Notes under the pieces: generated by a model | The model's database searches: none | Told to the model about the DNA's origin: nothing | The model's input: the letters and a program-made list of their open reading frames with translations, nothing else | Made by a program: the position numbers and the translations under genes | In this document: piece after piece, positions 30,516 to 33,500 of the stretch | How positions within the stretch are numbered: position 1 is the first letter of the stretch | How the letters are laid out: each line of letters begins with the position of its first letter | Source of the DNA: Candidatus Micrarchaeota archaeon | GTDB taxonomy: Archaea; Micrarchaeota; Micrarchaeia; Norongarragalinales; SBBD01 | Direction: 5' to 3' | Length of the DNA stretch: 64,000 bases | NCBI GenBank assembly: GCA_018819225.1 | Contig: JAHJQN010000001.1 | Location: 32,001 to 96,000 of the forward strand

Positions 30516-33500
30516 TCAAGATGTTTTCGGACATGAATGGTCGCCGAGAGTCACAAGCTCAAGCATCACGGTACCCTTACCGGGGTCATTTTCAATCCAA
30601 TTGATGGTAATTGATTTTTGCTTGTCGGTCCAACTCCTAACGGTTCTTTTTCCAAATATCGTGGAAAACGAACGCGTTCCATAAATTCGATTATCTTCAA
30701 TTTTAAGTCCGTCTGGACAAGAAAGGGTAAAATCAAGGGTGGTTGCATCAATTCCTTGCCGCGAATCCAGATTTCTGACTTTTAATTGATAGCCATTCGA
30801 AAACCGGGCTTCTTTCATGGGCCCGAATTTCTTAAATGTAAATACGCACGCACGCTGGTCTTTCGGGCACGTTCGGTCGATGGTGCTCCCTTTTGAATAA
30901 CCAAGAGAATACAGCCCTAAAGTAACGTACCCTTCATTATAACCGGGGGCTTTCTCCCATCTGATCTTTACCAGATCCTCCGAATCAAACCAATCGCTAC
31001 CATATATGGACGGCTGACACACTCGTCCGTCCACTGTTTTGGTATCTGAATAATAGAGATCAAACTGAACACATTGAACTCTAAATCCACCGCGATTAAA
31101 TGACTTGATTTTCACGCGCAACCCATTGTCTAACACGACCTCGCTGCCTACCCGCAATTCCTCGTAAATTCCGTCGCCTTCTTTCAACCCAGGAGCAACT
31201 ATTCCCGCCGGAGGCCCTTCGGGTATTGCAGTCTCATCAGTCGGAGTCGACACTATTCGTTCGCTCTTGAACCGCCATCTCACGACGCGCAAACCGTCAT
31301 CGCGTTTGAAGCCTAATGCGTCGAATGCGTCGCAGCTCAAATCAATGCCCGCACCATTGGTTTTGCGATCTTCGGGATGCATGAGTTCTGCCTTGGGTCG
31401 AACGGTCGACGTTTCATCCAAAACATATTCGTGATCATCAGTATACCAAGGACCCACATCGAGAACGGTTAAGAATACGGAGTTCCCTTCGTCATTTTGC
31501 ACTTCAATTTCAGTATTTAATGCACGAGTTGAAGGAAGTGCAGCGTACTTATCTACTTCTTTTGACATTTTTCCAGATGCCATTTCTTCATTTTTCTCGC
31601 AGCCGAACCAAGACGCTTTGATTCCAGAATGCCAGACGCCCGGAAGCTTCTCGGATTTATCAAACTTCTTTTGGACTTCCTCTTTTTCTTCCACAGAAGG
31701 AACGAACAACAGTTTATCCGGTCCGTTAGCAGTAGCTGCAGTCGTCACCCACTTGCCATCCTCTTCCCTTACGTAACGACGCATGTTATCAGGAATGTTG
31801 CCTTGCTCGATATCATGCGGGTTCACGATGATGAGGGGCAGGTAAAGTTGGTGGTTGTACGGTGCATCTAAATAACCGGCGTACAACAGGAGACGTTCGC
31901 CGGTTTTTGCATTTAATGGAGCCAGTGGATAAGTAAATGACGCGCGGCGCTCCAAATTCTCATCGGGTTCCAACAAGTTCTCGGAATCGCAAGTTTCAAC
32001 GCTGTTGATCGTGTCCCCGCTTTCGAATTCGCAGTTTCTATAAATGCGCACGTTTCGCTTTCCGGCATATGCGTCATCCCCATCGGGGAACGTGCCCGTA
32101 AACTGGAGCAAGGAAGGTGTTTCCGAGAACTTCGATTCGGGATCAACGGCTTTTCCGTTTTCGTGCCATTCGAAGTGCAAGTGGTATCCCTTACTATGAC
32201 CCGTATTGCCAACAATGCCTAATTTCGTTCCGCGGTCGATGTGATGTCCTTCGCGTACAGTCAAACCATCTTGCATGTGGAAGTACTTTGTAATATCACC
32301 ATTATCGTGTCTGAGAACCACGTTAAAGCCTGCCGAGTCTGAATACGCAGCGGTTTGGACGGTTCCAGCCGCAGCAGAAAGAACAGGCGATCCTCGGTCT
32401 GCGGCAATATCAATTCCGTAATGCATCTTGCGCTCTCCATCTAATGTACGCATTCCAAATTGGCCATTGCTGCTGATCATGCAGAATTCAGTGGTTGGCC
32501 ACGTATAGTATCCATTGCTACGAACAGAACATGCCTCGCCTTGCACTTCCGCCATGGAAAGTACGAGCAAAGGCTTCAATTCTTCGGATTCTTTTACGGT
32601 GACGAAATCATCCGTCGGATTCTTCACGAAACCTTGCGTTACTTTCAGTTGTATTTCATCCAAACCATACTGTGCGCCGATTGGTTTGCGTTCTACTATC
32701 ACATTCACGGTTCCGAGTTCGCGAGTGGTCTGATATTCTTTGCGCGATTTCAGCGACGATGCTGAGCTATCGGTGACAACGGCAACGCGTAACGTTAACG
32801 GGTCTTCGAACGTGTCGCTCAATTGCTTGATGGCCGTGGACTCCGCGGTTTCAGTAGAAAGACGCTCGTAATCCACTTGAATCAACAGTTTTCCGTCCTC
32901 GATTTTGCATCCAAACACGTCAAAATCTTGCTCGCCGGTTTCGAGATCTTCCAGGTCGCGGTACTTGTTGACCATGCTGCGCACTTTATTGTTCTTGGAA
33001 ATGAGTTCGCAGACGTAATGCTTTTCTGGCGGCAGATTCGGGAAAGCGCCGAGCATGGGAACCGCGTAATCCTCCAGTTTGAAACCAATGATGGTCGTCG
33101 AGGTCTTGTCTGCAAAGGAAGCGAAGTGAAGCTCCGAGGAATAGCGGCCATTGACCGCGTTGCAGTTAACCGTTGCGTCTTTGGGAGGCACTGTCAACTG
33201 CACGGCGCCATCATCTTCTTTCGATGCGGGGGAATACGTTTCTTCTTCAAGAATAAAGTAACCGGATTTGAATTCCGCATCCATGTCCACGCGGGAAGGC
33301 AATCCATCGAGTAGTTGAATTTCTACGTCCCCGTCCTCCAATCCCGAGGGCTGGCAATTCGTCAACAAATCGTCGGTGACCTTGAACTTCCCGTCTTTAG
33401 AGGCGTCTATGTCCGCGTTCTTGGAAGTGAGTAAGAAAGCCAGCGGACCGCCGAATGGTTCCAAATCGTATTGCGAGCGGCTGCCCAATTGAACTACGAT

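Follow-up and report, generated by a model that had tools for sequence, protein, structure and literature searches.

Giant wall-lytic proteins have been described before in small archaea. In Woesearchaeota and Pacearchaeota, Castelle et al. (2021; PMC8204110) described murein transglycosylase domains on proteins that reach 3,000 aa, for which they proposed a role in attachment to the walls of bacteria. Vigneron et al. (2022; PMC9723730) argue for predation, and Strock et al. (2025; PMC12352652) found that archaeal hydrolases, including an M23 peptidase, kill bacteria. The hosts of all cultivated DPANN archaea are reported to be archaea (PMC11291902). A survey of the Micrarchaeota (PMC12892359) regards the order Norongarragalinales as potentially host-independent, and neither "peptidoglycan" nor "M23" occurs in its main text.

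We analysed a DNA window (the whole stretch under study, 64,000 nucleotides) in which one ORF encodes a giant protein with an N-terminal membrane anchor, a long stalk and a tip that carries an M23 domain and an RlpA-like double-psi β-barrel (Table 1). The giant resembles the DPANN family fam00969, whose members are likewise extracellular, reach ~3,000 aa, carry a wall-lytic domain and have been proposed to attach to or attack bacteria. Those proteins, however, are from Woesearchaeota and Pacearchaeota and of the SLT/GH23 type, whereas the giant is from Micrarchaeota and combines M23 with DPBB, the distinction being one of phylum and enzyme type. With Woldo of Halogranum salarium (PMC12352652) it has an intact archaeal M23 domain, domain shuffling and a patchy distribution in common, but Woldo-type proteins are secreted and combine M23 with PG_binding_1, whereas the giant is tethered. 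It has the catalytic Pfam domain of the modular peptidoglycan hydrolases defined by Strock et al., yet no wall-binding domain was recognised in it with Pfam, which places it outside that definition. Thus, the giant would work like both sets but is a member of neither as defined.

Table 1. Features of the giant protein and of its neighbourhood, with positions in the window.
Feature	Position	Strand	Remarks
Giant membrane-anchored protein	30516..39215	-	2899 aa; no N-x-S/T sequon (16.9 expected)
Single N-terminal transmembrane helix, aa ~28-46, after short helix ending G-V-P	39078..39134	-	Hydrophobicity
Conserved stalk, to aa ~2175	32691..39077	-	Carboxypeptidase-regulatory/Big_1/MG-type beta-sandwich repeats, then Tyr/Gln/Pro-rich stretch
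Peptidase M23 domain, aa 2263-2359	32139..32429	-	H2265, D2269, H2347 (zinc); H2345, H2313 (catalytic)
Linker or domain, ~160 aa	31659..32138	-	No family; model unreliable (pLDDT <50)
RlpA-like double-psi beta-barrel, aa 2520-2654	31254..31658	-	D2586 and D2625, separated by an insert
C-terminal cap, two ~90-aa repeats	30543..31142	-	29% identity between the repeats, E 9e-6
180-aa gene	39546..40088	+	Lies between the two giants and is conserved there in orthologous loci (48-51% identity)
Paralogous giant, 2929 aa, Cys-rich	40116..48905	-	Lacks a wall-lytic Pfam domain; syntenic partner in relatives

The general idea is therefore already published for other small archaea, as giant wall-lytic DPANN proteins had been proposed as devices for bacterial attachment (PMC8204110). 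New here are the scaffold, the barrel subfamily, the order-wide arsenal and the avoidance of sequons, and wall-lytic giants are extended from Woesearchaeota and Pacearchaeota to Micrarchaeota; in the literature searched we found no description of the scaffold, of the enzyme pair or of the frequency of such enzymes in Norongarragalinales. The presumed DPANN origin of the cell holds: the named records with this stalk are Candidatus Micrarchaeota, several of them labelled Norongarragalinales, and a relative of the barrel is present in Ca. Norongarragalina meridionalis. The genome has 1.37 Mb and is 90% complete and 0.22% contaminated; the habitat of the probable source run is groundwater.

The N-terminal helix is the only strongly hydrophobic segment of the giant (KD 2.7; elsewhere at most 1.3), suggesting a type II (N-in, C-out) surface protein. 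Compared with shuffled sequences the lack of sequons has a P of 4e-8, and depletion at P under 0.02 recurs in 13 of 15 homologous stalks, while most cytoplasmic controls are at chance and an enrichment of about threefold is seen in other surface giants. A genome-wide tally by crude topology class lumped secreted proteins with cytoplasmic ones and was left out of account. A chain would be selected for the loss of sequons mainly where it meets the glycosylation machinery, so that their avoidance, together with an AglB-like gene in the genome, lends indirect support to an outward-facing (C-out) giant. Strong avoidance runs across the stalk family (homologues L044-L057), and the multi-enzyme hydrolases L028, L029 and L030 of the order contain none at all.

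Over its first ~1,200 aa the stalk is 35-48% identical to its orthologues, and this homology ends abruptly at about aa 2175. The tip domains have a GC3 of 0.43-0.46 as against ~0.60 in the stalk. This is suggestive of a later acquisition of the tip domains, but their values lie only some 1.5-1.8 SD under the genome mean. Neither the linker between the enzymes nor the C-terminal cap has a family or an Atlas match, and their structure models are poor; the cap weakly matches the C-terminal end of a remote homologue of the stalk that is encoded in G057. The enzymes had been placed near the membrane-distal end, and they do lie near the far end, but sub-terminally, as about 245 aa follow the barrel. 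An insertion of the M23 domain inside a stalk domain was also considered and dropped, the right flank being unaligned to the orthologues (z at most 1.4).

The M23 domain matches the full Pfam model (Peptidase_M23, PF01551; positions 1-96 of 96, E 4.4e-27) with 94.6-100 bits against a cut-off of 28.7. By sequence, solved M23 enzymes in the PDB match it with an E of 2e-16. The core of the predicted structure has a pLDDT >90 and can be laid over LytM with an rmsd of 1.1-1.3, and over further M23 enzymes, with Foldseek matches at E ~1e-9 to 1e-8 and rmsd 1.1-2.2, in agreement with a LytM fold. All motifs quoted in the original prediction were found where it had put them (HYGID at aa 2265, YFHM at 2311, HLH at 2345, ASWFG at 2534, MASG at 2545, VLDVGPW at 2584, GIDLS at 2623), and the HxxxD and HxH motifs and a histidine ~30 aa upstream (H2313) provide all five active-site residues that have been described for M23 (PMC9662197). 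These residues had been read as a full zinc ligand set; all are present, but only H2265, D2269 and H2347 are ligands, whereas H2345 and H2313 activate the water (PMC9662197). Likewise, the domain predicted at 32139-32510 is intact, but its Pfam extent is shorter, the start at 32510 taking in an N-terminal loop. HxxxD, HxH, the upstream His and the fold are as in the M23B metallopeptidases LytM, lysostaphin, ShyA and zoocin A, from which the domain differs in being embedded in an archaeal stalk.

A barrel had been predicted at 31269-31634, and its fold is confirmed by AlphaFold and structure search and both Asp residues are present, but the DPBB_1 model (PF03330) scores the isolated barrel at 27-27.4 bits (E 5e-6), below the cut-off of 28.8. 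We therefore class it as RlpA-like and not as RlpA. The AlphaFold model, calculated with 104 relatives, reached a pLDDT of 92, and its best structural match is the RlpA-like protein PA4485 (92 residues aligned, Z 12.8, rmsd 1.8); a baseplate protein of a cyanophage (Z 11.9) comes next, before kiwellin and expansins (Z 10.9 and below); the top viral structural matches are annotated as RlpA-like. D2625 lies in an x-D-L-S motif that aligns with the I-D-V-S motif of PA4485. RlpA of P. aeruginosa uses Asp168 as catalytic residue and acts on stem-denuded glycan (PMC9712689), and judged by the PA4485 alignment D2625 would be the equivalent of Asp168.

A search of 1.84 billion representatives yielded 131 relatives of the barrel. 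D2625 is kept in 104 of 104 and D2586 in 102 of 104 of them, and the subfamily is marked by a conserved insert of ~30 residues between the two Asp with a D..Y..RP..E signature; DPBB_1 matches at E 1e-3 in just 12 of 106. The barrel thus shares the fold and the D-x-G-P and I-D-L-S motifs with the family-2 lytic transglycosylases RlpA and PA4485, but differs from them by its insert, by a score below the family cut-off and by the lack of a SPOR domain and a lipid anchor. For SPOR there was no match in the giant, the anchor of which is an uncleaved helix, in contrast to that of canonical RlpA. The barrel belongs to an uncharacterised subfamily, which could be a new type of antibacterial enzyme.

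Among the 106 full-length relatives every partner family that occurs at least twice is a peptidoglycan domain (PG_binding_1 9, Amidase_3 7, M23 3, M15_4 3, PG_binding_3 3, NlpC/P60 2, Amidase_2 2), which makes peptidoglycan the likely substrate. The frequent pairing with amidases fits the action of RlpA on stem-denuded glycan, but Amidase_3 was not found in the 90%-complete genome, implying that the barrel of the giant accepts another substrate or mainly binds. On balance we lean towards a catalytic barrel. Its relatives occur in archaeal loci, in one bacterial-type locus and in one phage-like gene run, and the clusters closest to it in the Atlas are unnamed, most of them viral or phage. A single-sequence search of the PDB and searches of phage records and plasmids gave no match to the barrel, and pattern scans of genomes and metagenomes added one small stand-alone barrel only. 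The barrel tree is poorly resolved, with six Micrarchaeota rows within one unstarred 17-row group, and the nearest plasmid-borne M23s (40-48% identity) are spread over many phyla, so that neither analysis names a donor.

The stalk is shared by orthologues whose tips differ. Orthologous giants of 2.2-2.4k aa are encoded in four same-family genomes; identity is 35% in the first 1,200 aa, and an intact M23 domain follows late in the chain. Tips with M23 only were found in G003, G007, G008 and G009 (cut by the contig end in G007), while the source species combines M23 with the barrel on a stalk of ~2,175 aa that is conserved across orthologues. No enzyme is recognisable in L047 and L048, two orthologues that are complete, or in more distant ones, so that the stalk has a function which does not depend on the cutting of walls. 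M23 and barrel were not found together on any further giant; L043 and P0136, the nearest relatives of the stalk, are truncated before the tip. Monophyly of the five giant-borne M23 domains is not rejected (p-AU 0.51; tree without named bacterial rows); independent gains were dropped for this reason, and a single gain followed by losses and divergence is possible. Where the contigs reach, gene order is shared (Lon, paralogous giant, 180-aa gene, giant, ACT, rpo operon). Among the five paralogous stalk giants of the genome the giant at 30516-39215 is the only one with a wall-lytic Pfam domain. The other four (1928-3462 aa; G000 C2:246017-256402, C3:15551-24277, C7:168310-174093 and window 40116-48905) consist of a transmembrane helix plus stalk and have none.

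Wall-lytic enzymes are frequent in this lineage. M23 occurs in 96 of 401 Micrarchaeota genomes (91 over the cut-off), and in the 68 Norongarragalinales genomes SLT was found in 36, NlpC/P60 in 18, Amidase_3 in 12 and the barrel in five; searches for SLT, NlpC/P60 and Amidase_3 gave no match in the archaeal control genomes. At least one peptidoglycan-hydrolase family is present over the cut-off in at least 59 of the 68, a union of SLT, NlpC/P60 and Amidase_3 with M23 made by hand from genomes that are kin and not independent and many of which are incomplete, with weak NlpC or SLT matches that may have other substrates. Barrels of the order are found in fusions with M23 (G036, protein cut at its 5' end), with M23 and Amidase_3 (G057) and with M23, NlpC/P60 and Amidase_3 (G025), or the barrel gene adjoins M23 or NlpC genes; in G021 a small barrel protein with a signal-peptide-like N-terminus is encoded beside an M23 gene. 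The multi-enzyme proteins seen in the order combine M23, NlpC/P60, Amidase_3 and barrel with a weak glucosaminidase (L028:1-2805), M23, Amidase_3 and SLT (L029:6598-9633), a GDSL esterase with M23 (L030:1793-4378) and a metallophosphoesterase with M23 (L033:495-3125). An unrelated surface giant of 3311 aa has Amidase_3 in mid-chain (L088:3842-13774, G008).

The reading that we consider best, and somewhat more probable than its alternatives taken together, is that of two enzymes on a tether that open the walls of bacteria with which they come into contact. The lineage-conserved β-sandwich stalk of ~2,175 aa would keep a variable distal cassette off the cell, the M23 zinc endopeptidase would cut peptide cross-links, and the RlpA-like barrel, with the repeat cap behind it, would cut or at least grip glycan strands. 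Tethering would limit wall loosening to a bacterium in contact, so that it could act locally in attachment or feeding. Against this reading, an outer membrane would shield the walls of Gram-negative bacteria. The genome gives no sign of a wall substrate of its own, as no penicillin-binding protein was found in it at 90% completeness and its sole Mur-ligase match is a FolC-like sequence. SLT was found neither in the giant nor in the genome, and PG_binding_1 and LysM were not found in the genome.

That the tip acts on bacterial peptidoglycan is quite likely in our view, and M23 enzymes of another archaeon do kill bacteria (PMC12352652). The wall-breaching apparatus of the original prediction stands in so far as the M23 domain is intact, the fold is RlpA-like and peptidoglycan is the likely substrate, with the score below the DPBB_1 cut-off and the closeness of the kiwellin and expansin folds as counter-evidence to wall cutting; the host or prey relation is a step that we infer from these features. 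For such an offensive role the balance is about even, and the argument that Norongarragalinales are relatively host-independent (PMC12892359) counts against it. The far-reaching version, in which the order consists of contact predators or epibionts of bacteria, nearly all of them with peptidoglycan hydrolases, which the family studied here would mount on an unglycosylated giant stalk with exchangeable tips, a new lytic-transglycosylase subfamily shared with phages among them, is tentative and rather doubtful as a whole. M23 and barrel are two small, expressible domains, which makes a direct test feasible.

With the same chemistry but in the opposite direction, the giant could be a defensive spike that attacks competitors or small bacteria living on archaea. 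Patescibacteria do parasitise archaea (PMC10936435), an arms race, which has been argued for archaeal hydrolases (PMC12352652), would fit the patchy occurrence and the variation of the tips, and the order may be host-independent (PMC12892359). The published cases, however, are large methanogens and not small DPANN cells, and a lifestyle seems the better match for several hydrolase families that are retained in nearly the whole order, so that we regard defence as unlikely, if the most serious alternative. It is also unlikely, and a little more so, that the enzymes scavenge debris, freeing peptides and sugars from dead walls without a live host or prey. Scavenging has been proposed for other DPANN archaea (PMC11537232), the habitat is groundwater, and the tether would hold the products near the cell, but AnmK, GH3/NagZ and a LysA-type decarboxylase were not found in the 90%-complete genome, and a 320-kDa stalk is a costly solution where relatives have small secreted versions.

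Alternatively, the barrel might be a non-catalytic glycan grip for M23 in the manner of the non-lytic expansins and kiwellins, with which it has the fold in common and which are among its top Foldseek matches, or the whole tip might be a wall adhesin that does not lyse. The low DPBB_1 score and the lack of another wall-binding module in the giant are consistent with this, as is the search of the 90%-complete genome, in which no Amidase_3 that would denude the glycan was found. On the other hand, both Asp residues of the barrel are almost invariant, many of its relatives stand alone as secreted proteins or have their own peptidoglycan-binding domain, which is the layout of a catalytic module, and the M23 domain has kept its five active-site residues, in contrast to the degenerate EnvC/NlpD type. 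We thus give a grip or adhesin a low probability.

Pseudomurein differs from murein in its sugars and linkages and in its stems of L-amino acids. Pseudomurein-walled hosts, which had been named as a second possible target, or another archaeal polymer are highly improbable: the archaeal hosts of all cultivated DPANN archaea (PMC11291902) would fit such a target, but nothing was found that supports pseudomurein, all partner families are bacterial-murein enzymes, and the word "pseudomurein" is absent from a review of M23 (PMC9662197). Finally, an assembly chimera or bacterial contamination, which the lower GC3 of the tip domains might suggest, is largely refuted and next to negligible, since a 113-kb Logan contig from the probable source groundwater run (different assembler but same reads, and so not an independent sample) encodes an identical giant and covers 29500-40500 with 0 differences and no joints, orthologous giants with M23 in four same-family genomes provide independent support, with synteny where contigs reach, and archaeal rpo genes adjoin. 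Chimerism near 32500-33000, a reservation of the original prediction, is accordingly unsupported; in runs X2 and X3 there are just short pieces, scattered, and no RNA data set was among the runs listed as containing the sequence.

The window contains further features of note. An intron-containing tRNA at 39290-39408 (+) was detected by Rfam and missed by the tRNA tool; its anticodon is CUG (Gln) by inspection, and the label Pyl given by the intron mode of ARAGORN probably results from a misplaced intron. At 39417-39473, between the 3' end of this tRNA and a duplicate of that end, lies an element of ~45 bp that is present in multiple copies in the source assembly. LonB appears to be split into two adjacent ORFs of 479 and 276 aa (48996-51265), and a class II ribonucleotide reductase with two LAGLIDADG inteins is encoded at 60561-63998.
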